Of a stretch of 32,000 bases of DNA, positions 1-25,232 are shown one piece after another (position 1 is the first letter of the stretch; each line of letters opens with the position of its first letter). The DNA comes from Methanothermobacter thermautotrophicus str. Delta H. GTDB taxonomy: Archaea > Methanobacteriota > Methanobacteria > Methanobacteriales > Methanothermobacteraceae. A program made the position numbers and the translations under genes. Below the pieces are notes generated by a model that made no database searches, was not told the DNA's origin, and worked only from the letters and a program-made list of their open reading frames with translations. The stretch lies in assembly GCF_000008645.1 (NCBI RefSeq), contig NC_000916.1, positions 600,001-632,000 on the forward strand. Reading direction: 5' to 3'.

Positions 1-2941
1 CGCTGTCTGGTGAGAGCATCCCTGATACCATGAGGGCCACTTCACTGTCAGTCCAGTTGAGACCAAATGTGTCAAGTCCATAGGGCATCAGTGTACTGGT
101 AATGCTCAGAAGGTAGTCATGCACCCTGTCTATGTCATCGTCCGTCATGTTGGTTGCGTTAATCCCAAGATCCCTTGCAAGGTCAAGTTTGATTATGGTT
201 TCCCTGATCTGCTTTGCATATTCGTCTCTCATGGGGTTTCCAGTTGGTGTAGCCTCGTAACTTGACACGAGCCCTGCAAGTTCCTGAAGGTCACCGTAGA
301 GCTTTGTTCTTGTCAGCGGTGGTGTTAAATGATCTATGATCACTGCAAGTCCTCTTCTCTTGGCTTGCAGACCCTCTCCAACACCATCCATTATGTAGAT
401 GTATAGTGATGGTGTATCTCCTATGCATATATCAGGGTAATCAAAGGATGAGAGGGCATACTGTTTCCTTGGTGTCCACTCGTAGGTTGCGTGTCTTCCA
501 ACGTGTATCTGCGCATTTGCACCGAAAACCGTGTTTACCCATGCATACCATGCAAGGTAGCAGTGAGGTGGTGGAACTATTGTGCTGTGGTAGAGGTTTG
601 CAGCGTCGGCTTCCCATCCCCTCTGTGGTTCCGGGCCTATGAAGACATTTCCAAACATGAGCCCCGGGATCACTACGTACTTCCTTCCATTTCTTGTTAC
701 AACCATGACGTTTCCTGGTGGTTCACCCCAGCCAGTCATCCCTGAAACATTGAGGGCCATGAACTGGTTTTTGTAGATGTAGAAGAGATCCCATGCCGTT
801 GTGTTGGATGTGTTCCAGATGACTGCTGTCAGGGCAGCGCTCATTTTGTTTATAAGATCAATTGCTGTTCCTGCGATCTGAGGGTGTGTATTCGCATTTG
901 AGATCATCTCCTGGGTCCAGCGGTTGAGTGTCTTGAGCATTTCATCCCTGACCCTGCAGTCTCCTTCATTGATACACTGCACCGCAACCCTTGTGAGTTC
1001 CTCTATGTATCCAACGGGACCTTCAACCATCTCCTTGCGGGCAACAGGATCAAGTGTATTGAACCATGCAAGGTAGTCCTCGTATGGCCACAGTATTGCA
1101 TTTGAACTGTTTGCAAGTTTCTCAAGTTCACCGGGGGCCCAGTTGGCAACATTTATACCGTTTTTGATCATCATCTCAACCAGTGCATCAGCGTCCTGCG
1201 GTATTTCACCAACACTGTAGCCCTCTGCCTTCATGCGCTTGAGTATCTCAATGATACTTTCGGGGACATTAAGGTAACTTGCACCTATGTTCTGCTTACC
1301 CGGCGGGTAGTTGTAGTATACAATTGCCACCTTTTTGTCACTATTTGCCATGGTCTGGAGTCTGATCCAGTTGAAGGCCCTGCTGACAAGTTTCTCTATC
1401 CTCTCTGGAATGGTCACTGTTATGTCCCACTGTGCACCTGTTTCAGGATCTGAACCTATCTCACCCACACCTATGGCAAGTGGTTCTATCTGACCCTGCA
1501 TCTCTGGCTGTGCACACTGCCAGTAAACTGACATCCAGCTGAATCCCTCCTCTGAGACAATCCACTGACCAATTGTTCTGTATGTAGAACTGGTTATCAT
1601 TGCCCTCAGAACAGGGATATTTGATCTATCAAAGAACTTGGTAACACTGGCACCGGATGTTGTTGACCCGGTTATAAACGTCAGCATATCTATGATAACG
1701 TTTGCCTTGACAGGGTATTTTTCAGGGTTGGCCTCGTACTGAACAACGTTTGATGCATCTGTGAGAAACTTTACTAGGGCTGAATATACGTTCACCGGCT
1801 GTACTGTGCTGATCTTGAGACTCCTTATTAGGTTACCATTATCAAGTATCTGAACCTCATAAACATTCGCACTTGAGACGCTGGTAACACCAAGGATTGA
1901 TGTGAGGTCAGTGTAGTTCCCTATTCCCCTGATGGCAGTTATGTTGTAGGTCTGGTTTGGCATGCATAGCGTCTGGATAATGTTCTGCATACCAGTCTGG
2001 TTGAGGATGACATAATTTGACCATGTACCTATAACTGGTATGACGTTGAGTCCCCTTGAGACGAGTGCATCGATTATCTGCTGCATCGCATCAGCGTAGG
2101 TGACCTCCCCTGTGGATCCAACATAGCTCAGGACAGCCACTGTGGGTTTAGCTGGATCCAGAGGATATCTTGTGAAGTAATCCTCCTTTGTAAACCTCTG
2201 ACCATCACGGTAGAGGAATTCTGATGACAATGGAGAAGCTGGTTCAACAGTCGCAGGCTCCCAGCTGCTGTTCCATGGTATTCCGCGCATGTTATAGTAC
2301 ATCTTTAGTGCGAGTTTGAACTGATTTTCAAGGTTTGTTTTGCCCGCTGCTGCATAGTACAGGGCGCAATCTATCCACTGATGCAGTGCTGTGTTTCCAG
2401 GGTATTTCTGTTTATATGCTATAAGAGATGTAAGGTCTCCGTCGTGACATGCGCCTATTAAAGTACCTGGTCTATCGTATGTTCCAATATCACTGTCGTT
2501 AACACCAGTGAAGACCTCTGTATTGTTTATTCTGCTCAATTTGACGAGAGTTGGTCCGCTTTCAAATGCAAAAAACAGTTTGTTTTCTAATATTGATGGA
2601 TGGGCTCTTATAACAGCTTCAAAGGAACCGTTACCGGCGAGCTGTGTGCCCCATTCAGCAATTATAATACTGGAACTGTTGATGAGTGACAGTATCTCAT
2701 CGCCTGTCATGTTACCTATCTGTGTGGTGGATCTTATCTGGAAATTCACCCTCTTCGCATCCCTGTTTGTGAGGTTCATTACAGTGTATGCAACTTCATT
2801 GTAACTCTTTGTGGCTGTAGATGACCCTATAACCAGTACAGTAGTTGAATTATCCTCCGTGCTGTTGTCTGCTGCTGCCACGCTCTGGCAGAACATTAAC
2901 ATGAGAAGAACTGCTGTTACTGTAATCAGATGTTTTCTCAT
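1..2941 (-). CDS. CobN / Mg-chelatase-H family large-subunit homologue with N-terminal signal peptide (C-terminus lies beyond window start)
   Basis: Absent from the ORF track because it has no stop in the window. My manual minus-strand translation from ATG 2941 (SD GGAGGTG at 2951-2957) starts MRKHLITVTAVLLMLMFCQSVAAAD and appears open to base 1. It contains CobN-type motifs GNVFIGPEPQRGW, HVGRHATYEWTPRK and AVIIDHLTPP, plus many N-x-S/T sequons. Confidence 0.85.
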   Translation of the reverse strand, partial: MRKHLITVTAVLLMLMFCQSVAAADNSTEDNSTTVLVIGSSTATKSYNEVAYTVMNLTNRDAKRVNFQIRSTTQIGNMTGDEILSLINSSSIIIAEWGTQLAGNGSFEAVIRAHPSILENKLFFAFESGPTLVKLSRINNTEVFTGVNDSDIGTYDRPGTLIGACHDGDLTSLIAYKQKYPGNTALHQWIDCALYYAAAGKTNLENQFKLALKMYYNMRGIPWNSSWEPATVEPASPLSSEFLYRDGQRFTKEDYFTRYPLDPAKPTVAVLSYVGSTGEVTYADAMQQIIDALVSRGLNVIPVIGTWSNYVILNQTGMQNIIQTLCMPNQTYNITAIRGIGNYTDLTSILGVTSVSSANVYEVQILDNGNLIRSLKISTVQPVNVYSALVKFLTDASNVVQYEANPEKYPVKANVIIDMLTFITGSTTSGASVTKFFDRSNIPVLRAMITSSTYRTIGQWIVSEEGFSWMSVYWQCAQPEMQGQIEPLAIGVGEIGSDPETGAQWDITVTIPERIEKLVSRAFNWIRLQTMANSDKKVAIVYYNYPPGKQNIGASYLNVPESIIEILKRMKAEGYSVGEIPQDADALVEMMIKNGINVANWAPGELEKLANSSNAILWPYEDYLAWFNTLDPVARKEMVEGPVGYIEELTRVAVQCINEGDCRVRDEMLKTLNRWTQEMISNANTHPQIAGTAIDLINKMSAALTAVIWNTSNTTAWDLFYIYKNQFMALNVSGMTGWGEPPGNVMVVTRNGRKYVVIPGLMFGNVFIGPEPQRGWEADAANLYHSTIVPPPHCYLAWYAWVNTVFGANAQIHVGRHATYEWTPRKQYALSSFDYPDICIGDTPSLYIYIMDGVGEGLQAKRRGLAVIIDHLTPPLTRTKLYGDLQELAGLVSSYEATPTGNPMRDEYAKQIRETIIKLDLARDLGINATNMTDDDIDRVHDYLLSITSTLMPYGLDTFGLNWTDSEVALMVSGMLSPDS

Positions 2942-2990
2942 GATCTTTTCACCTCCTTTGAATTTTTCAATATCCATTTATTGTGAAGAC

Positions 2991-2998
2991 AATATAAA
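2991..2998 (-). promoter_or_regulatory. Candidate TATA box (TTTATATT on minus strand) upstream of the CobN-like gene
   Basis: AT-rich element about 50 nt upstream of ATG 2941 in the 185-bp gap after the preceding gene. Position is compatible with an archaeal TATA plus a short SD-containing leader. No experimental support. Confidence 0.3.
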
Positions 2999-3126
2999 TT
3001 ATTGTTATTACTATTTTGAGGCAATCGAAAAATAGAGTATTAATAAACCGTTAACTATTACTCATTTTATATGTGTATCAAGAAAACGTAATACCAAATG
3101 TTAATAAAAAGAGAAAAAATTGGGGT

Positions 3127-6027
3127 TTATTTTCCTGCTCCGCCCCTGAGGAATCCGAAGGCCACGAGACCAGCGGCAACAAGGACACCCACGATACCGT
3201 AGACGTACCATGAGGAGTCACCACCACTGGAACCTGAGGTCACATTCTTAACCTCATAGGCCTTTGAAGGGGTTGATGCAGGCTCCTCTGACACTGAAGA
3301 TGCAGCGCCCACCTCTGCAGGTGAAGCAGCCGTATCCACACCCGGTGAATAACCTGCATGTCCGCCGCTGATACCATCAGCTGAACCTGAGGGAACACCA
3401 CCAGGAACACCACCAGGAACACCACCAGGAACACCGCCCTGGTTTCCGTTCTGTGATCCTCCGTTGTTCACCGGAATGAGGTCAGCAAGGGTCCTGTTTG
3501 CAGGTATGCCCTTAACGTATGCAATGGGGTTCTGACCGTTTGCACCGGAGAGGATCATCTGAAGTTCACTCTCTGTGATGAGCCTCTCAGCATCGTAGGT
3601 CACAACCGGTGGAGCTGTCATGTAACTTGGTATCTCACCCTTGTAGAGGCTTATGAAGCCAGCTATCTGCTTCTCCCTTTTAGCATCATTGGTCGCACAG
3701 TCACTGGTATCGAATTGTGGCCATTTGAAGTCAATGACAACAGCCCTTCCAACCTTGTTCTTGTTGTCCCAGATAACAAGGATACCCTCAATGTTTCCGC
3801 CATAGGCGTATTCATTTTCAGGGTCGTTCTCTGTTCCGGGTACTCGAAGGTTGAAGTAGGTTCCCTGCCCGGGGGATACCCCCAGTCGGTAGACTATGGC
3901 GTCGTCCTTGCAGTAGATGGTGTTACCGAGGTAGATGTAGTTCTCATCCTCCTTGAGGGGATAGTTGTTGAATATGTACTCTGTTATCAGGTAGCCTGGT
4001 GATACACCTGGACATGCATGGTCATGGAAGAGGAATGTCAGCACCTGATCGTAGGGTGGGTCGTTCCTCCATGCATTTGCTATGCTCTGTATGTTGAACC
4101 ATCCATCCTTTGCAAAGACCTTTGATATCTTGTTGCTCAGCTGTGTGCTGTTCAGGGTCCTTGGGCCTATGTCATTCACGAATTTACCGTCTGAGGCATT
4201 GCTTGCAACAAGCTGACCTGTTGTCGGGTCATAGTAGATGTAGACTGCATCCATTGTCATGCCATCGTAGCCTCTGAGGGCAAATGTGAACCATAGTGGC
4301 TTCCAGAGTGGCCTGTGTACCGGCAGGAGGGTTGCCCTGCTGAGCCTTGATCCCAGGACATCGAATACTCCGTCCCAGGCTGCGCTCATATCCTGTCCAT
4401 TCACCCTTGAGTAACCAGCAGATGTTAACACCACAAGGTCCCTGTCATCCTTCTCAAGGTTTATACCCTTCTCTGTGAGGAATAACTGTTTTGCGAGGTT
4501 TGCAGCGTCAATTCCTATCTGTTTTATCTGGTTGTATGTGAGGTTACCCCATGATAATGTGTTGTTTTCACGGGTTGCATTGGAGAGTCCAAGACTGTCT
4601 ATGTATGCCATGTCAAGGCCATGGGCAATCTGGGCAGGTATCTGGTATGTGATGTTGTTTACCTTATCTGTGGCGTTCACAGGGTTTTCTGTACCCAGCA
4701 GATAGTAGTAGTGTGTAACATTGAGGTCCTTAAGTTCCCTGACGATTGTAATAAGTGATGTTGGGTCCTGTTTCAGTTTAGCTATGAGCCATGCATTGAA
4801 TTCAAGCTCTGTGTTCTTTCCGGTCTGCTGCTGGAACTGCCTCCTGAGTGCCTCCTTGTCAAACTTCATCACTATGAGGTCACCCTTGAGGGTGTTGGGG
4901 TTCCATCTTATGAAGCCAACAAGGTTGGTGTCTGCACCGGTGGCTGTTGTGTTGAATCCACTGTAGGATCCGCCCTTACCCGGTGTTGTGTCGAGGAACA
5001 TTAGGAGTGAATCATCATCTGAGTCGCCCGGTACACCCACTGTCACGTAGCTTGTTATCTCACCGGGTGATCCTGGATTTGTAAAGTCCATGACTGGTGG
5101 ATAGTACTTGAGGAGTGTCAGACTCATTGCATATCCGCTGATGGTACCCAGGCACATGTGCCCATGGAATGCAGCTGCCCTGAGAAGGTCTGATGGAGCT
5201 CCCTGGACCCAGGCATTGGCAAGGCTTGCAACAGGGAAAGCATGGTTCCCATATTTGCTTACCAGAAGGTTCCAGTTTGCCTCTGTCATGTTCTTTGTGA
5301 GGTCGATGGTGTATACCGCTTTACCGTTAACTGTTTTAATGACGACCGGTGATGTGCTTGCATTCTTGAAGTAGACTCCAAGGAGCGTTGCTCCTCTCTG
5401 GATTATGAAAAATGTGTCCAGTGGATCCACAGGGCTTTTCCTTATGACAAGAAGGTTGCCCTTACCATAGGTCACCCTTCCACCAGCCTGGTTGAGTATG
5501 CCCTCAATGACATCCTCTGATGTGTCGTTTCTGTATTTGACTATTCCTGCCGTTGTTATAACAAGCACGTTGCCGCTTGAGAAGTTGAGGATCTGGTCTG
5601 CCTTCTTTGTTATTTCCCTTCCCAGTTTGTAGGCGTCTGTGGCGTTCATTCGGAGCTGAAGTTTTGCGTAGTATTTTGTGTCCAGTGGATTTAGCGGGTT
5701 GGTTGAGATGGTGAATTCATGTAGAAGATCCCTGTAGCCGGGTGCTGTGACCTTGATCTTGAATTTTGTGGTGTTCGTGATGTTCTGGTAGTTGAATATG
5801 AGCTTTGTTATGTTTGCCGCCGGATCAAAGGTCTTTGTGAAGTTTATCTTTGTCCCGTTACTGTCAGTGATGTAGTTTATGTCAGGGTTTATACGGGAGT
5901 TATCGTCGGCGTATTCATATTTGACGTCAACCCCCACCTCACAGTTTGTATCAGCTGCACTCACAGAACCCGTAAGTGCCACAGCAACGAGAAGAACCAT
6001 GAAAACCATGAAATACTGTCTTCCCAT
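3127..6027 (-). CDS. Large secreted, C-terminally membrane-anchored protein with two FmdE-like motifs (function unknown)
   Basis: 966-aa ORF with SD GGAGGTG 7 nt upstream of ATG 6027. Signal-peptide-like N-terminus (MVFMVLLVAVALTGSVSAAD), about 20 N-x-S/T sequons, and two paralogous segments: ANAW..AAAFHGHMCLGTISGY (aa 270-299) and ANAW..FLFHDHACPGVSPGY (aa 650-679), resembling the FmdE family HGHxCPG signature. Gly/Pro/Ser linker, hydrophobic helix (aa ~940-960) and short basic tail. Confidence 0.85.
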   Translation of the reverse strand: MGRQYFMVFMVLLVAVALTGSVSAADTNCEVGVDVKYEYADDNSRINPDINYITDSNGTKINFTKTFDPAANITKLIFNYQNITNTTKFKIKVTAPGYRDLLHEFTISTNPLNPLDTKYYAKLQLRMNATDAYKLGREITKKADQILNFSSGNVLVITTAGIVKYRNDTSEDVIEGILNQAGGRVTYGKGNLLVIRKSPVDPLDTFFIIQRGATLLGVYFKNASTSPVVIKTVNGKAVYTIDLTKNMTEANWNLLVSKYGNHAFPVASLANAWVQGAPSDLLRAAAFHGHMCLGTISGYAMSLTLLKYYPPVMDFTNPGSPGEITSYVTVGVPGDSDDDSLLMFLDTTPGKGGSYSGFNTTATGADTNLVGFIRWNPNTLKGDLIVMKFDKEALRRQFQQQTGKNTELEFNAWLIAKLKQDPTSLITIVRELKDLNVTHYYYLLGTENPVNATDKVNNITYQIPAQIAHGLDMAYIDSLGLSNATRENNTLSWGNLTYNQIKQIGIDAANLAKQLFLTEKGINLEKDDRDLVVLTSAGYSRVNGQDMSAAWDGVFDVLGSRLSRATLLPVHRPLWKPLWFTFALRGYDGMTMDAVYIYYDPTTGQLVASNASDGKFVNDIGPRTLNSTQLSNKISKVFAKDGWFNIQSIANAWRNDPPYDQVLTFLFHDHACPGVSPGYLITEYIFNNYPLKEDENYIYLGNTIYCKDDAIVYRLGVSPGQGTYFNLRVPGTENDPENEYAYGGNIEGILVIWDNKNKVGRAVVIDFKWPQFDTSDCATNDAKREKQIAGFISLYKGEIPSYMTAPPVVTYDAERLITESELQMILSGANGQNPIAYVKGIPANRTLADLIPVNNGGSQNGNQGGVPGGVPGGVPGGVPSGSADGISGGHAGYSPGVDTAASPAEVGAASSVSEEPASTPSKAYEVKNVTSGSSGGDSSWYVYGIVGVLVAAGLVAFGFLRGGAGK
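3392..3439 (-). repeat. In-frame 12-nt tandem repeat x4 encoding (GGVP)4 in the C-terminal linker of the surface protein
   Basis: ggaacaccacca occurs three times exactly, followed by ggaacaccgccc. The translation reads GGVPGGVPGGVPGGVP. Confidence 0.9.
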
Positions 6028-6090
6028 ACCTTTTCACCTCCTTTTAAGTTCTTTAATGGTTAATAATGTACGGATCTTCCTTGGAGTAAT

Positions 6091-6104
6091 AAGATATATA
6101 ATGC
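6091..6104 (-). promoter_or_regulatory. Candidate TATA box (GCATTATATATCTT on minus strand) for the surface-protein gene
   Basis: AT-rich TATA-like element about 65-75 nt upstream of ATG 6027, within the 335-bp gap downstream of the NAS gene. Confidence 0.3.
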
Positions 6105-6171
6105 TTTTGTTAATACTTTAAGGCCTTAAACTGGAAAAAATGTAATACTCAATTTTTTCAGAAAGAGGGAA

Positions 6172-6192
6172 TTCATGGGGAAACCCCATGAA
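6172..6192. promoter_or_regulatory. Perfect 9-bp-arm palindrome TTCATGGGG-AAA-CCCCATGAA (operator or terminator hairpin candidate)
   Basis: Read directly from the sequence. Lies in the NAS / surface-protein intergenic region, about 170 nt downstream of the NAS stop and about 145 nt upstream of ATG 6027. Confidence 0.5.
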
Positions 6193-6221
6193 CTGATTGC
6201 TGGAGGGAAAATTTAATATCA

Positions 6222-6238
6222 AACACCATTCTGGTGTT
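6222..6238. promoter_or_regulatory. Second palindrome AACACCA-TTC-TGGTGTT
   Basis: Perfect 7-bp arms with a 3-nt spacer, 30 nt from the first palindrome in the same intergenic region. Confidence 0.4.
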
Positions 6239-6362
6239 ACATGTTACTCTTGAATGTCCCTACTATTTAACAATTTCTATTTTAAAATTAATAATAACCA
6301 TCTGCTGTCATTCTCCCTGATGGTAATAAGTATAAGCGAGTGAATTCCTTTATCATGGGAAG

Positions 6363-7163
6363 TCAATCAGGACATTTAAAAACAAGTACCGAAGTGTTGT
6401 TAACCTTCCCTGATGGCAGGACAACTCCTGCCCTCCTGAATCCGGTGATATCATCATCACTGACAGGTGCGTAGAGGATAGCCCTCATACCTGTGTATGT
6501 CCTGTAGATAATCCGCGTTTCTGTATCAACATATCTGTGTATGTTCCTGAAAACCCTTCTCTTTGGCTCTGCAAGGGCCGCCACCATTAACACATCAAAT
6601 TCAAGACCATCAATGACGGTTTCATCTCCAGTTATGACATTCACACCATCAACTCCAAGGCCTTCGATGACCTTTCTTGAGAGCTCAGCGATGTCTGGTT
6701 CGATTTCAACAACATTAACTCTCATACCATAGACGTGTGAGAGAAGAATACCTGTAAGGGGTAGGGGACCACCTCCAATAAAAACTGCTCTCTCCCCTCT
6801 CCTGAATCTTCCAAGGGCAGCCTCATTCTTAAGTAGTTCAAGGTACCTTGGGTAGAAGTAGAATGACCTGAGGGTCTCCCAGGGTGAGTCTGACTCTATG
6901 ACCTCCTGTGCCTTTTCCATTTCAAGCTTCATCCCGAGATTCACGTAGAACTTCCTTATCAGGCTGAGTGCATGATTCATTTCAGCATCATCGAGGATGT
7001 GCTTTGCTGATTCAAAGTCAATGGTTGAGTCATGGGCTATCTCCTCGATTTCATCAAGAAGTGGCATGACCCCGCTGGTGTCCATCTCATCGAAGTGATA
7101 ATTCATTCCCTCGAGTCTTGAGGCTATCCTCTTTATCTTATCCCAGTAGATGTAGCAGCTCAT
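6363..7163 (-). CDS. Nicotianamine synthase-like enzyme (thermonicotianamine synthase, MtNAS-type)
   Basis: 266-aa ORF. I recognise the sequence (MSCYIYWDKIKRIASRLEG..., SAM-binding VFIGGGPLPLTG) from memory as the structurally characterised M. thermautotrophicus NAS homologue (MTH675). Confidence 0.92.
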   Translation of the reverse strand: MSCYIYWDKIKRIASRLEGMNYHFDEMDTSGVMPLLDEIEEIAHDSTIDFESAKHILDDAEMNHALSLIRKFYVNLGMKLEMEKAQEVIESDSPWETLRSFYFYPRYLELLKNEAALGRFRRGERAVFIGGGPLPLTGILLSHVYGMRVNVVEIEPDIAELSRKVIEGLGVDGVNVITGDETVIDGLEFDVLMVAALAEPKRRVFRNIHRYVDTETRIIYRTYTGMRAILYAPVSDDDITGFRRAGVVLPSGKVNNTSVLVFKCPD

Positions 7164-7353
7164 AGCGGTTCTCCTTAGGTCATGGTAATGTTATTGAACA
7201 GCACACTTTATAAGACTTGAGCACATATGTCATATATGAAGACAATCATGTATTACTTTATCTGGATTTAACACAGAATAATTATTACTTACTGGTGATG
7301 GATGTTATCGCTGGTTGAATGAGGGGGCAAAAAACACTGAAAAACAAAAGGTG

Positions 7354-7932
7354 ATGGAAATTATCACTGTGGCTGAACCCATGAGTGAATCTGAACTTGA
7401 ATCCATAAGAAACTTCCTCTTCAGGATAATCAGGAGGGAGTTTGGATTCGGATACATACCCGAGTACCACAGGGACATAATCAACCTTGAGGAGTACTAC
7501 CTCAAACCCCCAAGGAACATCTTCCTCTTCGCCTCCCAGGGTGGTAGGGTAATAGGGACACTGGGACTCCGTGCCTATGACCGTGAATTTGAGGGCCTGA
7601 ACTATGATCCAGAGACAACGGCCAGCCTGTGGAGGGTTTTTGTAGATGAGGATCACCGGAGGATGGGTGTTGCATCCAGACTTGTTGAAATCGCCGAGAA
7701 GGAAGCAGCATCACTGGGCTACCAGAGGATCTACCTGCACACACATAAATACGTCGGTGGTGCCCTCGAATTCTGGCTTTCAAGGGGATACCGTGTAACG
7801 GTGGACACAGGGAATGAACTCGGGACGGTCCACATGGAGAAGACCCTCTCATGCAATTCAAATGCAATTACCAGGATCCCTGAGAAAACCTCTGAACTCT
7901 CACATTCACTCCCCAGGACCCAGAAGGTTTAA
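7354..7932 (+). CDS. GNAT-family N-acetyltransferase
   Basis: ORF 7315-7932 (the track start is a TTG). I prefer ATG 7354 (MEIITVAEP...), which gives a typical GNAT N-terminus. Acetyl-CoA motif region VDEDHRRMGVASRLVEIAEKEA. Start uncertain (7315/7351/7354). Confidence 0.8.
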   Translation: MEIITVAEPMSESELESIRNFLFRIIRREFGFGYIPEYHRDIINLEEYYLKPPRNIFLFASQGGRVIGTLGLRAYDREFEGLNYDPETTASLWRVFVDEDHRRMGVASRLVEIAEKEAASLGYQRIYLHTHKYVGGALEFWLSRGYRVTVDTGNELGTVHMEKTLSCNSNAITRIPEKTSELSHSLPRTQKV

Positions 7933-8127: not shown

Positions 8128-8134
8128 AAAAAAA
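8128..8134 (-). terminator. T7 tract on minus strand, candidate terminator of the superoperon
   Basis: A7 on the plus strand (T7 on minus) about 90 nt downstream of the last minus-strand gene, whose stop is at 8225. Confidence 0.35.
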
Positions 8135-8224
8135 GTTATTACATGCTTTTAAATGAAAACTGGTTAAGTATTAATACATGATGATAATTACATAATATCT
8201 GTTTTAATCCAGAGGCGGCAGTGA

Positions 8225-16869: not shown

Positions 16870-17826
16870 TCAATGCTTTTCAGGTTTTTCAGCCGGCTGT
16901 GATTCTGTCTCGACCTCTGAAACCCCTTTATCTTCGGGATCTGAGAGCATCTCTGAGATTCCTGCAATGGATCCAAGTATGCCTGTGGCCTCCACGGGTA
17001 GCAGAATCTTTGTTGCCCTTCCATCTGCAACCTTTTCAAGGGCCTCAAGGTACTTCAGTGCTATTATATCATTTGTCGGGTCACCCTCGTGCATGGCCCT
17101 GAAAACTGACAGTATGGCCTTGGCCTGTCCCTCTGCTATGGCTATTTCCCTGTACTTGTTGGCATCTGCGACCTTCTTTATGGCCTCTGCCTTACCCTCT
17201 GCCTCCAGGATGGCTGCCTGCTTATCACCCTCAGCCCTCTTTATTTCTGACTGCTTGTAGCCCTCAGCCTCGAGGATAGCCGCCCTCTTCATACGTTCGG
17301 CCTTCATCTGCTTTGACATGGCCTCAACGATGTCACCCGGAGGCTCTATGCGCTGTATCTCAACACGGACGACCCGGGTCCCCCACTTGTCTGTGGCCTC
17401 GTCAAGCACCTCACGTAGCTGTGTGTTTATCATCTCCCTTGATGTTAGGGTCTGGTCGAGTTCAAGGTCCCCTATTATGTTCCTGAGGTTGGTCTGGGCA
17501 AGTTTGGTTATGGCCTGGTAGAAGTCAACGACGTTGTAGACAGCGTTGAAGGGGTCAACCACCTCATAGAATATCACGCAGTCCACCACAACAACTGTGT
17601 TGTCCTTGGTTATGACCTCCTGTGGGGGGACATCAACCACCTGTTCCCTCATGTCGACCTTCTTTATGGCCTCTATGAATGGTATTATGACCACGAGTCC
17701 GCTCTCCACGGTCCTCTGGTATTTACCCAGCCTCTCGACAACACCCTTCTCATAGGGTCTGAGTATCTTAAGGCTCTTGAATGCCAGTACAAGCAGTACC
17801 AGTACTATTATCAGCTCAAGTATCAT
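16870..17826 (-). CDS. SPFH-domain stomatin/prohibitin homologue
   Basis: 318-aa ORF with an N-terminal TM helix, an SPFH core ([22 protein letters not shown]...) and an Ala/Glu/Lys coiled coil. ATGA overlap with nfeD. Confidence 0.92.
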
Positions 17827-18251: not shown

Positions 18252-18478
18252 TAAACCCACCACATTTCATAATTCACTGAGTGTTTATATTATTTTCTAT
18301 GGCTCCCCTCAGTTATTATCATATATGTGTCGATACCATGGATATAGTAATTTGTAATATAATTTATAAATTTATTAATATTTTATATTCTGTTTGTTGT
18401 AGTTATTGTAATAATTTTTTCTGGAAAGATATTTATAGGGGTGGTGTCCATATTCTACCTCAAGGAGGTGGAGATCAT

Positions 18479-18877
18479 ATGATCGAAGATGAACTCAAAT
18501 TTCTGGTTCTGGGTTACAGGGTGTACACCGGTAAGACCCAGAGGGAACTTGCAGACGAACTCGGTGTCCCCCTGGACATCGTAATAGCCATGGAGGAAGG
18601 GACCTACAGGCACCCCACAAGGAAGCTGATGAGGAAAATAAATGAACTCACCGGTGAATATGAGGTGAACCGCAGGCAGTTCATAAACACCGGGAAGGGC
18701 TACAGGCTCAGGGAGAGGCTCGGATCACAGTTCAGGTACTTTGTCAGGGGCCTTGACAGGATGAAGTACATAAGCCAGAAGGACCTTGAGAAGATGCCTG
18801 AATCTGAATGCTACAGCACCATTGGTTCAGTTGACCTTGACGCGTTTGAGGTCCTCAAAGCAGGTAAAATGTCCTGA
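18479..18877 (+). CDS. HTH (XRE-like) DNA-binding protein with uncharacterised C-terminal domain
   Basis: ATG 18479 is preceded by SD GGAGGTGGAG. HTH segment TQRELADELGVPLDIVIAMEEG. The track ORF start at 18281 lies in an AT-rich promoter region. Confidence 0.7.
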   Translation: MIEDELKFLVLGYRVYTGKTQRELADELGVPLDIVIAMEEGTYRHPTRKLMRKINELTGEYEVNRRQFINTGKGYRLRERLGSQFRYFVRGLDRMKYISQKDLEKMPESECYSTIGSVDLDAFEVLKAGKMS

Positions 18878-19125: not shown

Positions 19126-20238
19126 ATGAGGTTCATAACACTCGTTCTGAAGAATCCATTCAGAAGCCGTGCAAGGAGTCTCCTTGCAATTACAGGTATT
19201 GCAATAGGGATTGCAACCATAGTAACCCTTGGCGTTATAACAGAGGGTCTGAAGACGTCCACAGAGGACACACTGAAGGCCGGAGGCGCTGACTTCACCA
19301 TAGTGGAGTCCAATGTCTCGGACATGTTCTTTAGCAAGATAGATGAGGAATACGTTGATAGGGTCAGGAATGTGAGCGGGGTGGAGGACGCTGTGGGGAT
19401 CCTCATGGCGGTCCAGCCGCTGGATGACAACCCCTACTTCGTTTTAATAGGTATAGACCCTGCGAAGATCAATATGAGCCAGATAAAGATAACAGAGGGG
19501 AGAACACTCCAGGACCCTGATGCAGATGAGGTCATAATGGGCAAGGTTGCATCTGAGAACCATGGAAAGAAAGTCGGTGACACCATAAAGATAAAGAACC
19601 GTGAGTACAGGGTCGTGGGCATATTCGAGTCAGGTGATATGCAGCAGGACTCAGGTGCGTTCATCTCACTTAAGAAACTCCAGAGGATAGAGGATAAGGA
19701 GGGCAAGCTCACCATGATATATGTGAAAATGACCCGAAATTCAGCTGTGGAGGATGTCACCGATAGAATCGAGAAGAGGTACAGTGACCTCACAACCATA
19801 GCCTCCCTGGAGGACCTCCAGAGCGTCGACCAGGGACTTCAGACCATCGACACTGCTACATGGGCCATTTCACTCCTCGCCATAATAATAGGAGGTATAG
19901 GAGTAATAAATACCATGATAATGTCCGTTTTTGAGAGGACAAGGGAGATCGGAGTTCTCAAGGCTGTTGGCTGGAGGGACAGGAGGATACTCGCCATGAT
20001 CCTTGGAGAATCTGTGGTCCTCACCGCCATTGCGGGTGCTGCTGGTTCAGTGCTCGGAGTCGCAGCGATACAGGTCCTCCTCGCCCTCGGGATGAAGGGA
20101 TTCATAGAGCCAGTCTACAGTCCTGAAATCTTCATGAGGGCCTTTGCGGTGGCATTCACAGTGGGTATACTAGGAGGGCTCTACCCTGCCTACCGGGCCT
20201 CAAGGCTTGCCCCCACCGAGGCCCTCAGGTACGAGTAG
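19126..20238 (+). CDS. ABC transporter permease, FtsX/MacB type
   Basis: 370-aa ORF. N-terminal TM helix, then a large extracytoplasmic domain, then a C-terminal FtsX-like three-TM bundle (REIGVLKAVGWRDRRILAMILGES...). Confidence 0.88.
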   Translation: MRFITLVLKNPFRSRARSLLAITGIAIGIATIVTLGVITEGLKTSTEDTLKAGGADFTIVESNVSDMFFSKIDEEYVDRVRNVSGVEDAVGILMAVQPLDDNPYFVLIGIDPAKINMSQIKITEGRTLQDPDADEVIMGKVASENHGKKVGDTIKIKNREYRVVGIFESGDMQQDSGAFISLKKLQRIEDKEGKLTMIYVKMTRNSAVEDVTDRIEKRYSDLTTIASLEDLQSVDQGLQTIDTATWAISLLAIIIGGIGVINTMIMSVFERTREIGVLKAVGWRDRRILAMILGESVVLTAIAGAAGSVLGVAAIQVLLALGMKGFIEPVYSPEIFMRAFAVAFTVGILGGLYPAYRASRLAPTEALRYE

Positions 20239-20246
20239 GTGATAGC

Positions 20247-20909
20247 ATGAAGGCCATAGAAGTCAGGGACCTCAGAAAGAGTTTTGATAGCGGGAGGATA
20301 AGGGCCCTTAACGGGGTCAACCTTGAGGTCGATGGTGGAGAGTTCATATCAATAATGGGACCATCAGGTTCCGGTAAATCAACCCTCCTTAACATGATAG
20401 GCGCCCTTGACGTTCCTGACTCCGGCACGATCTGTGTAGCCGGCAGGGACCTCTCAAGGGAAAGGGATCTTAGCCGGCTGAGGGCCGAGGAGATAGGTTT
20501 CGTGTTCCAGCTGCACAACCTCATACCCAACCTTACGGCCCTTGAGAACGTGGAGATACCCATGTTTGCGGTTAAACATGAGAACATGGAGGAACGTGCC
20601 ATGGAGCTCCTTGAATATGTTGATCTCGCTGATAAGGCCCACAGGAAGCCCACGGAACTATCTGGTGGTGAACGCCAGAGGGTTGCCATTGCACGTGCCC
20701 TCGCCAATGATCCATCCATAATACTTGCAGATGAGCCAACAGGGTCCCTTGATTCAAGGACCAGCCAGAGAGTCCTCAGAAAGCTGAGGGAGCTCCAGGA
20801 GGACGAGGGGGTGACCCTGGTTGTTGTGACCCATGAACCAGACGTGGCTGCCATGGCCTCAAGGACCATCAGGATACTGGATGGCGTTATTGTGGACGAC
20901 GGGTATTGA
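20247..20909 (+). CDS. ABC transporter ATP-binding protein (MacB/LolD-like)
   Basis: Walker A GPSGSGKST, signature LSGGERQRVAIARAL, Walker B IILADEPTGSLD. Confidence 0.95.
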   Translation: MKAIEVRDLRKSFDSGRIRALNGVNLEVDGGEFISIMGPSGSGKSTLLNMIGALDVPDSGTICVAGRDLSRERDLSRLRAEEIGFVFQLHNLIPNLTALENVEIPMFAVKHENMEERAMELLEYVDLADKAHRKPTELSGGERQRVAIARALANDPSIILADEPTGSLDSRTSQRVLRKLRELQEDEGVTLVVVTHEPDVAAMASRTIRILDGVIVDDGY

Positions 20910-23552: not shown

Positions 23553-25232
23553 ATGACTGCTCTCATCAACGAATTCGTGAACCGTGTTGAATTTGATTCA
23601 TACGAGGATTTCCGTGACAACTTCAGAATAAATGTCCCCGAAAACTTCAACTTCGCATACGATGTGGTTGACAGATACGCTGAAATTGAACCTGATAAGG
23701 TGGCCCTGGTCTGGTGCAACGACCATGGCGAGGAGAAAAGGATAACCTTCGGTGAACTCCGGGACCTATCCAGCAGGGCCGCGAATTTCTTCACCAAGGA
23801 GGGTATACAGAAGGGTGACACAGTCATGCTGACCCTCAAGGCAAGGTATGACTTCTGGTACGCCCTCCTGGGGCTCCACAGGATAGGGGCCATAGCAATC
23901 CCGGCCACACACATGCTCAAGGAGAAGGACATCGTCTACCGTATAAGGGAGGCGGACATAAAGATGGTTGTCTGCATAGCAGAGGACGGTGTCCCTGAAG
24001 TATTTGAGGGAGCCATCGCTGAACTGGGCTCAGATACCCGGAGGGTCCTGGTTGGTGACACTGATAGGGACGGCTGGATAAATCTCAGAAAAGAAATCAT
24101 GAAACTTCCAGCCGACTTCGAAAGGCCAGAGGCCTGTGCCGGTGGGGATGACACCCTCATCGTCTACTTCTCATCGGGCACAACAGGAATGCCCAAGATG
24201 ATAGAACACGACCACACCTATCCCCTGGGCCATATAATAACAGCGAAGTACTGGCAGAACGTCAGGGAGGACGGCCTCCACTACACGGTTGCAGACACCG
24301 GCTGGGCAAAGGCCATGTGGGGTCAGATCTACGGTCAGTGGATAGCTGGAAGCGCTGTCTTCGTCTATGACTATGACCGCTTTGACCCTGAGAAGATGCT
24401 GGAGAAACTTGAAAAATACGAGATAACCACATTCTGCGCCCCTCCAACGATATACAGGTTTCTCATAAAGGAGGACCTGTCAAGATATGACCTCTCAGGA
24501 ATCGAATATGCTGTTACAGCTGGGGAGCCCCTGAACCCCGAGGTATTTGAGAGGTTCCGGGAACACACCGGCCTCCAGCTAATGGAGGGATTCGGGCAGA
24601 CAGAATGCGTTGTGTGCATAGCAAACTTCCCGTGGATGGAGCCAAAACCTGGTTCAATGGGCAAGCCATCCCCCGGCTACCCTGTTGAACTGGTGGACAG
24701 GAACGGTGACCCTGTGGACGTCGGTGAGGAGGGTGAGATAGTCATAAGAACCGCTGAGGGCAAACCCCTCGGTCTCTTCAACGGATACTACAGGAACCCT
24801 GAGAAGACCTCAGAGGTATGGCACGACTGATACTACCACACAGGGGACACCGCCTGGATGGATGAAGACGGCTACATGTGGTTCGTTGGGAGAACAGATG
24901 ACATCATAAAGAGTTCCGGTTACCGTATAGGGCCCTTCGAGGTTGAAAGTGCCATCATATCCCACCCATCGGTCCTGGAGTGTGCAGTAACAGGATACCC
25001 TGACCCCATAAGGGGACAGGTTGTGAAGGCCACCATCGTCCTTGCCAGGGGCTATGAACCCTCAGAGGAGCTGAAAAAGGAGATCCAGGACCATGTTAAG
25101 CGTGTGACCGCGCCCTACAAGTACCCGAGGATAGTTGAATTCGTTGATGAGCTGCCCAAGACCATAAGCGGTAAGATAAGGCGTGTCGAGATCCGTGAAC
25201 ATGACCTTGAAGGAGACGGTGAAAACCCATGA
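23553..25232 (+). pseudogene. AMP-forming acyl-CoA synthetase (medium/branched-chain type) interrupted by one in-frame TGA
   Basis: Track ORFs 23553-24830 and 24858-25232 are in the same frame. The sequence reads ...[36 protein letters not shown], so the stop (24828-24830) replaces the invariant Gly of the W-x-D-G-(W/Y)-Y-H-T-G-D motif. AMP-binding motif [11 protein letters not shown] is present. Confidence 0.85.

Follow-up and report, generated by a model that had tools for sequence, protein, structure and literature searches.

A thermonicotianamine synthase gene and two putative surface metal proteins in a probable nickel-limitation regulon of Methanothermobacter thermautotrophicus

Genes, operator-like dyads and nickel response

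The region analysed here is a window of 32,000 nucleotides from Methanothermobacter thermautotrophicus str. Delta H (NC_000916.1, positions 600,001 to 632,000), which opens with three minus-strand genes and one divergent gene: a CobN-family gene, a gene for a 966-aa protein with two FmdE stretches (termed FmdE2 below), the gene of thermonicotianamine synthase, a member of the nicotianamine synthase family (NAS), and a GNAT N-acetyltransferase gene (Table 1). Genes were called from a listing of open reading frames (ORFs) and translation of the window, with domains assigned by Pfam, and these four genes agree with a preliminary description of the region that had been made from its sequence. The NAS-like enzyme of that description is now firmly identified, as beside the Pfam match its residues 1-266 correspond over their full length to the crystallised MtNAS (PDB 3FPE/3FPF/3O31; 589-594 bits): NAS is the enzyme forming thermonicotianamine from glutamate and two molecules of S-adenosylmethionine (SAM). 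The CobN-family label likewise holds, though the window edge cuts the gene and leaves only the N-terminal 980 of the 1696 residues inside (full protein from loci L080-L085); Kaster et al. 2011 equate this gene with MTH673 (PMC3087415). FmdE2 is encoded identically on several contigs, the chromosomes AP011952 and CP064324 among them, and 3' of the GNAT gene lie genes for prefoldin beta, L37Ae and the exosome.

Table 1. Genes and other features of the window; PWM denotes the score of a position weight matrix.
Feature	Position	Strand	Evidence and remarks
CobN-Mg_chel gene (MTH673)	2-2941	-	Pfam E 1.6e-145
Operator-like dyad, CobN promoter	3003-3045		PWM 27.8
Operator-like dyad, CobN promoter	3053-3096		PWM 25.5; exact dyad at 3056
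FmdE2 gene (tandem FmdE, 966 aa)	3127-6027	-	two Pfam FmdE stretches, E 3.9e-27
Operator-like dyad, FmdE2 promoter	6108-6150		PWM 28.1; TATTAC-N26-TATTAA (gene strand)
Double hairpin, between NAS stop codon and FmdE2 promoter	6160-6250	-	
Thermonicotianamine synthase gene (MtNAS, MTH675)	6363-7163	-	Pfam NAS PF03059, E 2.4e-23
Operator-like dyad, divergent NAS/GNAT region	7248-7290		PWM 19.6; exact TATTAC-N26-TATTAC at 7251
GNAT N-acetyltransferase gene	7354-7932	+	Pfam Acetyltransf_1, E 4.6e-18; divergent from NAS
Operator-like site, convergent GNAT/DUF3194 gap	8134-8176		PWM 17.5
Band 7 gene	16870-17826		Pfam
Operator-like dyad, upstream of HTH_3 gene and MacB-type ABC unit	18373-18416		PWM 19.3
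HTH_3 (XRE-type) DNA-binding protein gene	18479-18877	+	132 aa; Pfam HTH_3
MacB-type ABC transporter genes	19126-20909	+	permease 19126-20238, ATPase 20247-20909; Pfam MacB_PCD, FtsX, ABC_tran
AMP-binding enzyme gene, as two ORFs	23553-25232		425-aa N-domain, 124-aa C-domain, 27 nt apart

The promoters of these genes share a sequence element. The hexamers TATTAC/GTAATA are invariant in intergenic alignments of three Methanothermobacter species, and in three Methanothermobacter loci 16 of the 18 intergenic hexamers fall into six target promoters (upstream of NAS/GNAT, FmdE2, CobN, DUF2162 and two FmdE2 paralogues), while the remaining 2 occur among 21 further intergenic regions that are comparable in AT content. 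The hexamers pair as a dyad, TATTAC-N25/26-GTAATA (37-38 bp), with the proximal half-site 4-10 nt 5' of the TATA box. Two exact dyads are present in the window and none in 300 simulated windows (expected 0.000). Over the NAS loci (1.24 Mb) the count of exact dyads was 131, 2 of them inside ORFs, compared to 0-4 for simulated sequence; sampling loci around NAS and FmdE2 enriches such counts by design, for which control ORFs and simulations compensate in part. From 135 unique sites the logo reads A[G/T]TATTACTatT, an AT-rich centre and aATTAGTAATA[A/C]T. With a matrix trained on other genomes, this genome being left out, the sites of Table 1 stand well apart from the maximum of 8.2 reached in 30 simulated windows.

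The two sites of the CobN promoter adjoin each other, with 6-8 nt between the proximal half-site and a downstream TATA-like TTTATAT, and the hexamers are kept in a related metagenomic locus (L089). The FmdE2 dyad is placed 8 nt 5' of the TATA box ATTATATA, with the hexamers at 6086, 6142 and 6323 invariant across the three Methanothermobacter species, whilst the NAS/GNAT dyad is found at the equivalent place in L001, L089 and 31 of 80 NAS loci. The site in the convergent gap downstream of GNAT is a separate observation: a promoter is unexpected there, and no ORF of at least 20 aa starts nearby.

When the 350 bp 5' of gene starts in the sampled loci were examined for sites with a score of 15 or more, such sites were found upstream of GNAT (37/43), FmdE2 (48/65), CobN (5/5), substrate-binding proteins of NikA type (5/8), NAS (37/87) and DUF2162 (7/18), compared to 5 of 377 control ORFs of the same loci; the operon-internal genes for ExbB, DUF2149 and a 165-aa anchored protein (family f35) had none, as expected. 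Across Methanobacteriales the dyad also precedes CbiM/NikM-type, NikA-type, MFS, hmd and hcgG-type genes, including the NikA-type gene in 8 of the 11 NAS loci having one. NAS, FmdE2 and CobN have a predicted TATA box and an operator each and appear to be transcribed separately instead of as one operon. The co-transcription of the three minus-strand genes, for which a test had been suggested, is hence not supported, whilst their co-regulation is, with a common dyad at all promoters and nickel-limitation induction of an FmdE2 orthologue and its ExbB-like neighbour.

The evidence for this induction is one published proteome of the sister species M. marburgensis covering Ni, Fe and H2/CO2 limitation (PMC12350162). 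For MTBMA_c10580 (D9PWQ4), a 105-kDa protein listed as "uncharacterized", this data set gives intensities of 1.3-2.6e7 with 5 uM Ni and of 5.5-7.3e9 with 250-50 nM Ni, a rise of ~330-fold to ~3-4% of total intensity; the protein is then among the most abundant (PMC12350162). D9PWQ4 is an FmdE-family protein in the 90% cluster of P0123, itself 79% identical to the window FmdE2, and is encoded between the "cobaltochelatase subunit-like" c10550-10570 (the counterpart of MTH673) and the GNAT gene c10620; family, cluster and position therefore identify it as the orthologue of the window FmdE2. Furthermore, c10530 is ~35-fold up and c10540 was detected under Ni limitation only (PMC12350162), which by gene order are the ExbB-like gene and DUF2162, respectively. 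The FmdE2 orthologue and its ExbB-like neighbour, the two proteins followed in the tables for Fe and H2/CO2 limitation, did not rise under either condition. The MacB-type ATP-binding cassette (ABC) protein c10830, Hmd, HcgG and a CobN paralogue (CobN1) also rise under Ni limitation (PMC12350162). By gene order, c10830 ("ABC transporter") corresponds to the MacB-type unit of the window and c10800 (PHB-domain) to its Band 7 gene. Thus, every predicted operator-bearing unit having data is induced by nickel limitation. Hmd is the classic Ni-sparing enzyme, whose transcription goes up under Ni limitation in M. marburgensis (PMC3087415).

Of the two metals, nickel and cobalt, named as plausible targets in the preliminary description, these results support nickel. 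That the target is instead cobalt or zinc, with an indirect nickel response, appears improbable to us: CbiM-type transporters and CbiX do serve cobalt as well as nickel, zinc was present in FmdE crystal structures (PMC2954224) and one Methanothermobacter NikR homologue has been suspected to sense zinc (PMC3087415), but the induction occurred with Ni alone lowered and not under Fe or gas limitation, and the dyad is also placed upstream of hmd and hcgG, the classic Ni-sparing response.

Surface features of FmdE2 and CobN and the Hmu-like module

The topology of FmdE2 and CobN was judged from sequence features. Both N-termini exhibit a charged/basic n-region, a hydrophobic core and an Ala-rich cleavage-type motif (VSA/AD and VAA/AD), and both C-termini a low-complexity Gly/Ser/Pro linker followed by a single transmembrane (TM) helix; in full-length CobN the hydrophobic segments span residues 4-25 and 1666-1694. 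NxS/T sequons are about twice as frequent as expected from composition in the two proteins (21 vs 9.8; 28 vs 14.9), whereas eleven cytoplasmic neighbours hold 0-2 per protein. The proposal that both proteins are extracytoplasmic and membrane-anchored is hence well supported, if not proven, by signal features, C-terminal helix and sequon excess. Between linker and anchor both also carry the motif K-[AS]-Y-E-V (FmdE2, 3127-3290 of the window; CobN, L084:17900-18177), followed by ~15 residues, the TM helix and a basic tail; this ending, matched by none of the NCBIfam models, may be a lineage-specific sorting or anchoring signal.

The two HxHxC motifs that had been reported for the 966-aa protein were found as FHGHMCLG (H288, H290, C292) and FHDHACPG (H668, H670, C672) and are invariant in 58 homologues. 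In the same alignment the distal C706 of the second copy is invariant, in the first copy GVPGxSDDD replaces this Cys, and there is little or no variation in the signal-type N-terminus and the Y-E-V motif. In an AlphaFold2 model (predicted local distance difference test score, pLDDT, 81; predicted template modelling score, pTM, 0.80) the signal peptide is followed by an Ig-like domain, two [alpha/beta + FmdE] units, a linker (residues 854-945, disordered), K-A-Y-E-V and the terminal TM helix; the sole clear match among solved folds is the FmdE-like 2GLZ, and a Shr-like heme-binding Pfam match in the N-terminus is weak (E 0.0057, under the cut-off). In FmdE crystal structures, sites of the His-x-His-x-Cys type coordinate metal (PMC2954224). 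FmdE2 is very abundant, to judge by its orthologue, and exhibits two such sites; it looks like a surface metal-binding protein that would feed a carrier (DUF2162 here; a 207-aa CbiM with f35 in relatives). With the FmdE/FwdE family (PF02663; 2GLZ, 2GVI, 3D00) it shares the alpha+beta core with the FHGHxC loop and, in its second copy, the fourth Cys. Whereas the members described so far form small homodimers in the cytoplasm and frequently contain a zinc ribbon, FmdE2 is a tandem fusion of 966 aa, probably secreted and anchored, with 147 detectable members, all in Methanobacteriales, and several paralogues per genome; its neighbours are CbiM, CobN and ExbB-type genes, with no linkage found to formylmethanofuran dehydrogenase.

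Outside the window, the CobN gene leads into genes for DUF2162, MotA/ExbB and DUF2149 (L080-L085), and this four-gene run recurs in Methanobacterium. DUF2149 appears in the literature almost solely as HmuV of the Bacteroidota hmuYRSTUV system, in which HmuS is a CobN homologue and HmuU a MotA/ExbB protein (PMC11681262, PMC10434189). HmuS is membrane-bound, with predicted N- and C-terminal anchor helices, strips iron from heme without ATP (PMC12583661) and faces the periplasm (PMC12094164). CobN had been regarded as a member of a normally cytoplasmic family: HmuS is an exception to this, being a membrane-anchored periplasmic CobN homologue with matching partner genes, and it is also the nearest relative of the archaeal protein with a solved structure (9d26, E 6.5e-112), followed by CobN (9uk9, 1.9e-107) and ChlH (4zhj, 3.1e-98). 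The HmuU and HmuV proteins of a Bacteroides locus (L169) resemble the archaeal ExbB-like protein (33% identity, E 9e-38) and DUF2149 (27% identity, E 3e-7). The two systems thus share the gene order of CobN-family protein, polytopic membrane protein of ~235 aa, MotA/ExbB and DUF2149, a CobN-family protein with membrane helices at both ends and the lack of adjacent AAA+ genes. They differ in that the archaeal cluster holds neither a HmuY hemophore nor a TonB-dependent HmuR (none in 23 kb around the cluster), belongs to a host without outer membrane and is regulated by Ni instead of Fe or heme; we know of no heme requirement of the host. A further difference is that DUF2162, though a polytopic membrane protein of HmuT-like size at position 2, has no detectable similarity to HmuT: an equation of the two found no support, since BLASTP gave no similarity and HmuT fragments had no DUF2162 Pfam match, the Bacteroides copy used being frameshifted.

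The IHxGxH segment with the essential His-538 of HmuS is kept in archaeal CobN and also in true chelatases, hence it is non-discriminating, and the partial CobN query scored 193-358 bits against NCBIfam equivalog cut-offs of 822-1926, i.e. below all of them. With the class-I chelatases CobN/ChlH it shares the superfamily and a conserved catalytic-core segment; it differs from them by its signal peptide and anchor, and by the absence of the AAA+ partner genes CobS/T or ChlI/D from the CobN cluster. An earlier proposal that MTH673 is the F430 Ni-chelatase (PMC3087415) fits poorly because the protein looks extracytoplasmic. Since the CobN-ExbB-DUF2149 linkage is kept in a host without outer membrane or TonB-dependent receptors, we infer that the ExbB/DUF2149 motor may serve the CobN-type protein or an uptake step instead of an outer-membrane receptor.

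A reading that follows from the Hmu likeness is that the CobN module is the archaeal counterpart of HmuSTUV, freeing Ni or Co from F430, corrinoids and other metallo-tetrapyrroles of lysed cells, with FmdE2 as recipient and NAS unrelated. The nearest solved relative, the terminal helix layout, the homologues of HmuU and HmuV 3' of CobN and the conserved IHxGxH all speak for it, but the similarity to CobN and ChlH is nearly equal and the His motif is common to true chelatases, hemophore and receptor genes are absent, and the 455 N-terminal residues of CobN did not align to HmuS, so that the heme-binding head and neck (Met-79, His-254) are unmatched. In addition, FmdE2-CbiM-f35-DUF2162-ExbB-DUF2149 clusters exist without CobN, hence the motor is not bound to a tetrapyrrole enzyme. 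We therefore regard this alternative as unlikely.

A Cys cluster, ACCDCSCGN, near the C-terminal end of the CobN catalytic body (residues ~1550-1570; L084:17700-17800, outside the window) may be an extra metal site. The M. marburgensis CobN at this locus (MTBMA_c10550-10570) is annotated in the literature as three ORFs of 66, 94 and 21 kDa, and in L089 the NAS match (L089:8841-9640) consists of two overlapping tblastn pieces; genes of the locus may be decaying in the M. marburgensis/L089 lineage, while the paralogue CobN1 is massively Ni-induced.

Neighbourhoods of NAS and FmdE2 across Methanobacteriales

The neighbourhood of NAS was surveyed in 79 species-level loci, all from Methanobacteriales, together with that of the window genome (80 loci, 43 of them with at least 6 kb on both flanks), and that of FmdE2 in 80 metagenomic loci, 52 after dereplication. 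Within 6 kb of NAS the most conserved neighbour is GNAT (25/43), followed closely by CbiM/CbiQ or Nik/Opp-type transporter genes (24/43), with small CbiX (9/43), NikR (5/43) and small cytoplasmic FmdE with zinc ribbon (6/43) less frequent. The functional link between NAS and metal acquisition that the preliminary description had proposed is supported. Because GNAT is so tightly paired with NAS, it is suggested to modify the chelator or a precursor.

By contrast, the synteny of NAS with FmdE2 and CobN, for which a test had been suggested, proved to be lineage-limited: FmdE2 is found near NAS in 5 of 43 loci and CobN in 6 of 43, whilst from the side of FmdE2 the commonest neighbour is the pair of a 207-aa CbiM and the 165-aa f35 (27/52), with ExbB-like (12/52), DUF2149 (10/52) and CobN (9/52) genes next and NAS in 3 of 52 loci. 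By a rough estimate, such genes would fall within 6 kb by chance in a few per cent of cases, so that the NAS-FmdE2/CobN links exceed chance, though they are not phylogenetically independent. The order NAS-FmdE2-CobN is specific to Methanothermobacter (L001, L089) and rearranged in one Methanobacterium clade (L006, L007, L010, L018). This bears on a reading of FmdE2 and CobN as structural or adhesive envelope proteins with NAS beside them through inherited order next to a conserved exosome/prefoldin operon. The cluster does lie directly beside the exosome superoperon, in Methanothermobacter as well as in part of the Methanobacterium loci, and the two proteins contain Ig-like or linker regions of a kind often met in surface proteins. 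However, the partners stay together after rearrangement in the Methanobacterium clade, and the common operator, motifs invariant in 58 homologues and a Ni-specific 330-fold induction are all at odds with such a role, which we consider most improbable.

With respect to transport genes, it had been stated that no importer or exporter is adjacent, and this is correct for the cluster itself, as positions 1-12 kb of the window hold neither an Opp/Nik-type ABC importer nor an exporter beside NAS. It does not hold for the surroundings: DUF2162-MotA/ExbB-DUF2149 follows CobN, a MacB-type ABC unit lies further downstream in the window, and in relatives NAS adjoins CbiMNQO or Nik/Opp-type ABC genes, MFS and MatE (NikA/B-type ABC importer genes within 6 kb in 11/80 loci, MatE in 7/80, MFS in 7/80). 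The stated absence of CntM agrees with our results: no CntM-type opine dehydrogenase was found by Pfam among the window genes or the scanned recurrent neighbour families of the 80 NAS loci, rare neighbours being partly scanned, and no CntK was seen in the window or the annotated recurrent neighbour families. Compared to the staphylopine and pseudopaline (Cnt) systems, the archaeal loci share a NAS-like aminobutyryl transferase, a nicotianamine-type chelator and control by metal limitation and, in some relatives only, an Opp/Nik-type ABC importer and MFS or MatE beside NAS. They differ in the product, thermonicotianamine (Glu + 2 aminobutyrate), in having GNAT as conserved partner and, in this genome, in neighbours that are surface proteins and a proton-motive module instead of an ABC importer.

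This distribution leaves room for co-regulated but separate roles, in which thermonicotianamine is a cytoplasmic Ni/Co buffer or carrier to CfbA/CbiX and enzyme maturation, the FmdE2/CobN/membrane module takes up free Ni(II) and adjacency reflects regulon clustering. In line with this, there is no dedicated exporter beside NAS in the window, the commonest NAS neighbours are free-ion importers (CbiM/Q), small CbiX and NikR, the FmdE2 survey met NAS so rarely, and MtNAS copurifies with its product inside E. coli (PMC10491745). Against it stand the Nik/Opp-type importers, the type used for bacterial opine-metal uptake, near NAS in 11 of 80 loci, 8 of these 11 with the dyad, MatE or MFS near NAS in 14 of 80 and the co-regulated MacB-type ABC unit 11 kb off; we regard separate roles as doubtful on balance, if still a possibility of some substance. 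More generally, the genes of Nik/Opp, MatE, MFS and MacB type associated with NAS speak for export of thermonicotianamine, whereas CbiM, CbiX and NikR speak for a cytoplasmic role. The MacB-type unit is a candidate exporter.

In Methanobrevibacter NAS often adjoins a run of families f30-f13-f9-f6-f5, divergent from hmd (f49) where hmd is present. According to Pfam, f30 is a fibrillarin-type FeGP-cofactor biosynthesis protein (HcgG type), f49 is Hmd, f13 has no match and f9 is a shortened molybdopterin-oxidoreductase-like protein of the kind described for ElpA (PMC12350162); f5 and f6 appear MvhD-like and FrhB-like, respectively, judged from sequence alone, so that the run probably corresponds to hcgG-elpXABC, with Pfam as basis for f30 and f9 and sequence judgement for f5 and f6. 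In five loci NAS adjoins the mcr/mrt operon, and families f54-f57, one of which had been suspected as a CntM-sized protein, turned out to be this operon. A 592-aa "ABC ATPase" by NAS in Methanobrevibacter was likewise rejected as a transporter, being the housekeeping RLI/ABCE1.

Plants convert nicotianamine with an aminotransferase, and a 394-aa class I/II aminotransferase occurs, together with a DGC-domain protein and a small Fer4 protein, within ~2 kb 3' of NAS in 8 loci (Methanobrevibacter: L031, L033-L035, L042, L066, L067); it could be a modification enzyme or a coincidence. Some Methanobacterium loci (L012, L013, L043, L051) hold 2-3 NAS paralogues within a few kb, 35-52% identical to the window NAS and interleaved with radical-SAM, small FmdE-zinc-ribbon and CbiM genes. 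The small cytoplasmic FmdE with a DksA-type zinc ribbon recurs by NAS (L005, L012, L013, L014, L022, L043, L076), and in this genome such a gene (L086:8316-8831) and an FmdE2 paralogue are transcribed divergently from a region that contains a dyad. Both a cytoplasmic and a surface version of the FmdE fold are thus connected with the regulon.

The gap between NAS and FmdE2 contains a double hairpin, AACACCA-GAA-TGGTGTT and TTCATGGGG-TTT-CCCCATGAA, flanking an invariant CCCTCCAGCAATCAG (folding energy -22.7 kcal/mol, z -2.6). Its stems are invariant in three Methanothermobacter species, apart from one compensatory G-C to A-U change, and Rfam gave no match to a known RNA or riboswitch over 2800-7500 at E <= 10. 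The element may be a tandem NAS terminator or another structured RNA or DNA element. The palindrome AACACCA-N3-TGGTGTT was discarded as regulon operator: the window has a single copy, one or more matches also turned up in 14 of 100 shuffles, and in Methanothermobacter the palindrome is found at this spot only, where it looks like a hairpin or terminator. Elsewhere in the window, the divided AMP-binding gene may result from a frameshift or be a genuine split gene.

A probable nickel-limitation regulon

Taken together, we consider it likely that the region is part of a Methanothermobacter nickel-limitation regulon that combines synthesis of a nicotianamine-type chelator with capture of nickel at the cell surface and its uptake. 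With NikR regulons (NikABCDE, NikMNQO) it shares a promoter-proximal inverted repeat at Ni/Co transporter and Ni-sparing genes and probably also derepression at low Ni, which the published proteome supports for the orthologues of FmdE2, the ExbB-like gene and the MacB-type unit; it differs from them in the half-sites TATTAC/GTAATA being 25-26 nt apart and in having NAS, tandem-FmdE and CobN-like surface proteins as members. Several results weigh against this interpretation. The NikR boxes on record, GTATGA-N16-TCATAC and GTGTTAC-N13/14-GTAACAC (PMC545781), differ from the dyad, and none of 10 nikR genes examined has an upstream site; for NAS itself, nickel regulation is predicted from the operator alone; the metal of the FmdE crystal structures is zinc and not nickel (PMC2954224); NAS lies near FmdE2 or CobN in a minority of genomes only; and CobN, split into three ORFs in M. 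marburgensis, may be dispensable. As to the regulator, neither of the two NikR homologues of strain Delta H (MTH603, MTH739) is a counterpart of M. marburgensis NikR1 (PMC3087415). A candidate alternative is the co-regulated HTH_3 protein of the window, which is 44% identical (E 7e-39) to a family, f29, whose members neighbour NAS/GNAT in Methanobacterium and have dyads upstream in 4 loci.

In the mechanism that we propose, a repressor would bind the dyad when nickel is sufficient and block TBP/TFB; promoter occlusion fits because the dyad adjoins the TFB-recognition element and TATA box (BRE/TATA). At nanomolar nickel the genes would be derepressed, and the very abundant FmdE2 would bind nickel outside the membrane at its two His-x-His-x-Cys sites. 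The HmuS-like CobN could then strip or transfer the metal, with the ExbB/DUF2149 proton-motive motor replacing the AAA+ ATPases of cytoplasmic chelatases, and DUF2162 (in relatives the 207-aa CbiM and a small anchored protein) would take the metal across the membrane. Thermonicotianamine, possibly N-acetylated by GNAT, might be either an exported nickelophore or an internal acceptor and buffer of imported nickel. The most far-reaching version of this proposal, in which exported and perhaps acetylated thermonicotianamine binds nickel in sulfidic habitats, FmdE2 captures the chelate, the CobN/HmuS-like protein, powered by the ExbB/DUF2149 motor and not by AAA+ ATPases, demetallates it outside the cell and DUF2162 or a CbiM-type carrier imports the metal, is speculative and has in our view a small chance of being correct in all its parts; if true, it implies that HmuTUV of Bacteroidota serve HmuS and not the outer-membrane receptor.

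The NAS enzyme, the nickel induction of CobN1 and of a "transporter" and the biochemistry of HmuS are already published. In the searchable literature we found no mention of the operator or of NAS in a nickel regulon, though a prior description of the dyad or of NAS neighbourhoods may exist, and none of the 105-kDa Ni-induced protein as a surface tandem-FmdE or of an archaeal Hmu-like architecture. The system is not a full Cnt or Hmu system, a canonical NikR regulon, a canonical CobN chelatase or a canonical FmdE: in its working it resembles a regulon for metal limitation in which a chelator is made alongside an uptake apparatus.

To our knowledge, the physiological role of archaeal NAS has been open since its structure was solved, and its placement in a probable Methanobacteriales nickel-limitation regulon defined by a common operator makes a role of the chelator in nickel supply testable. 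A strongly Ni-induced "uncharacterized" protein of M. marburgensis is identified as a tandem-FmdE that appears to be anchored at the cell surface. The role of the many archaeal HmuS homologues has been termed unclear (PMC12583661), and archaeal CobN homologues are now linked to the HmuS-T-U-V architecture in a host without outer membrane. Methanogens have a high nickel need for F430 and hydrogenases in habitats where nickel is often nanomolar and sulfide-bound, with the route of acquisition largely unknown (PMC10617489), and the findings thus also have a bearing on the management of trace metals in biomethanation.

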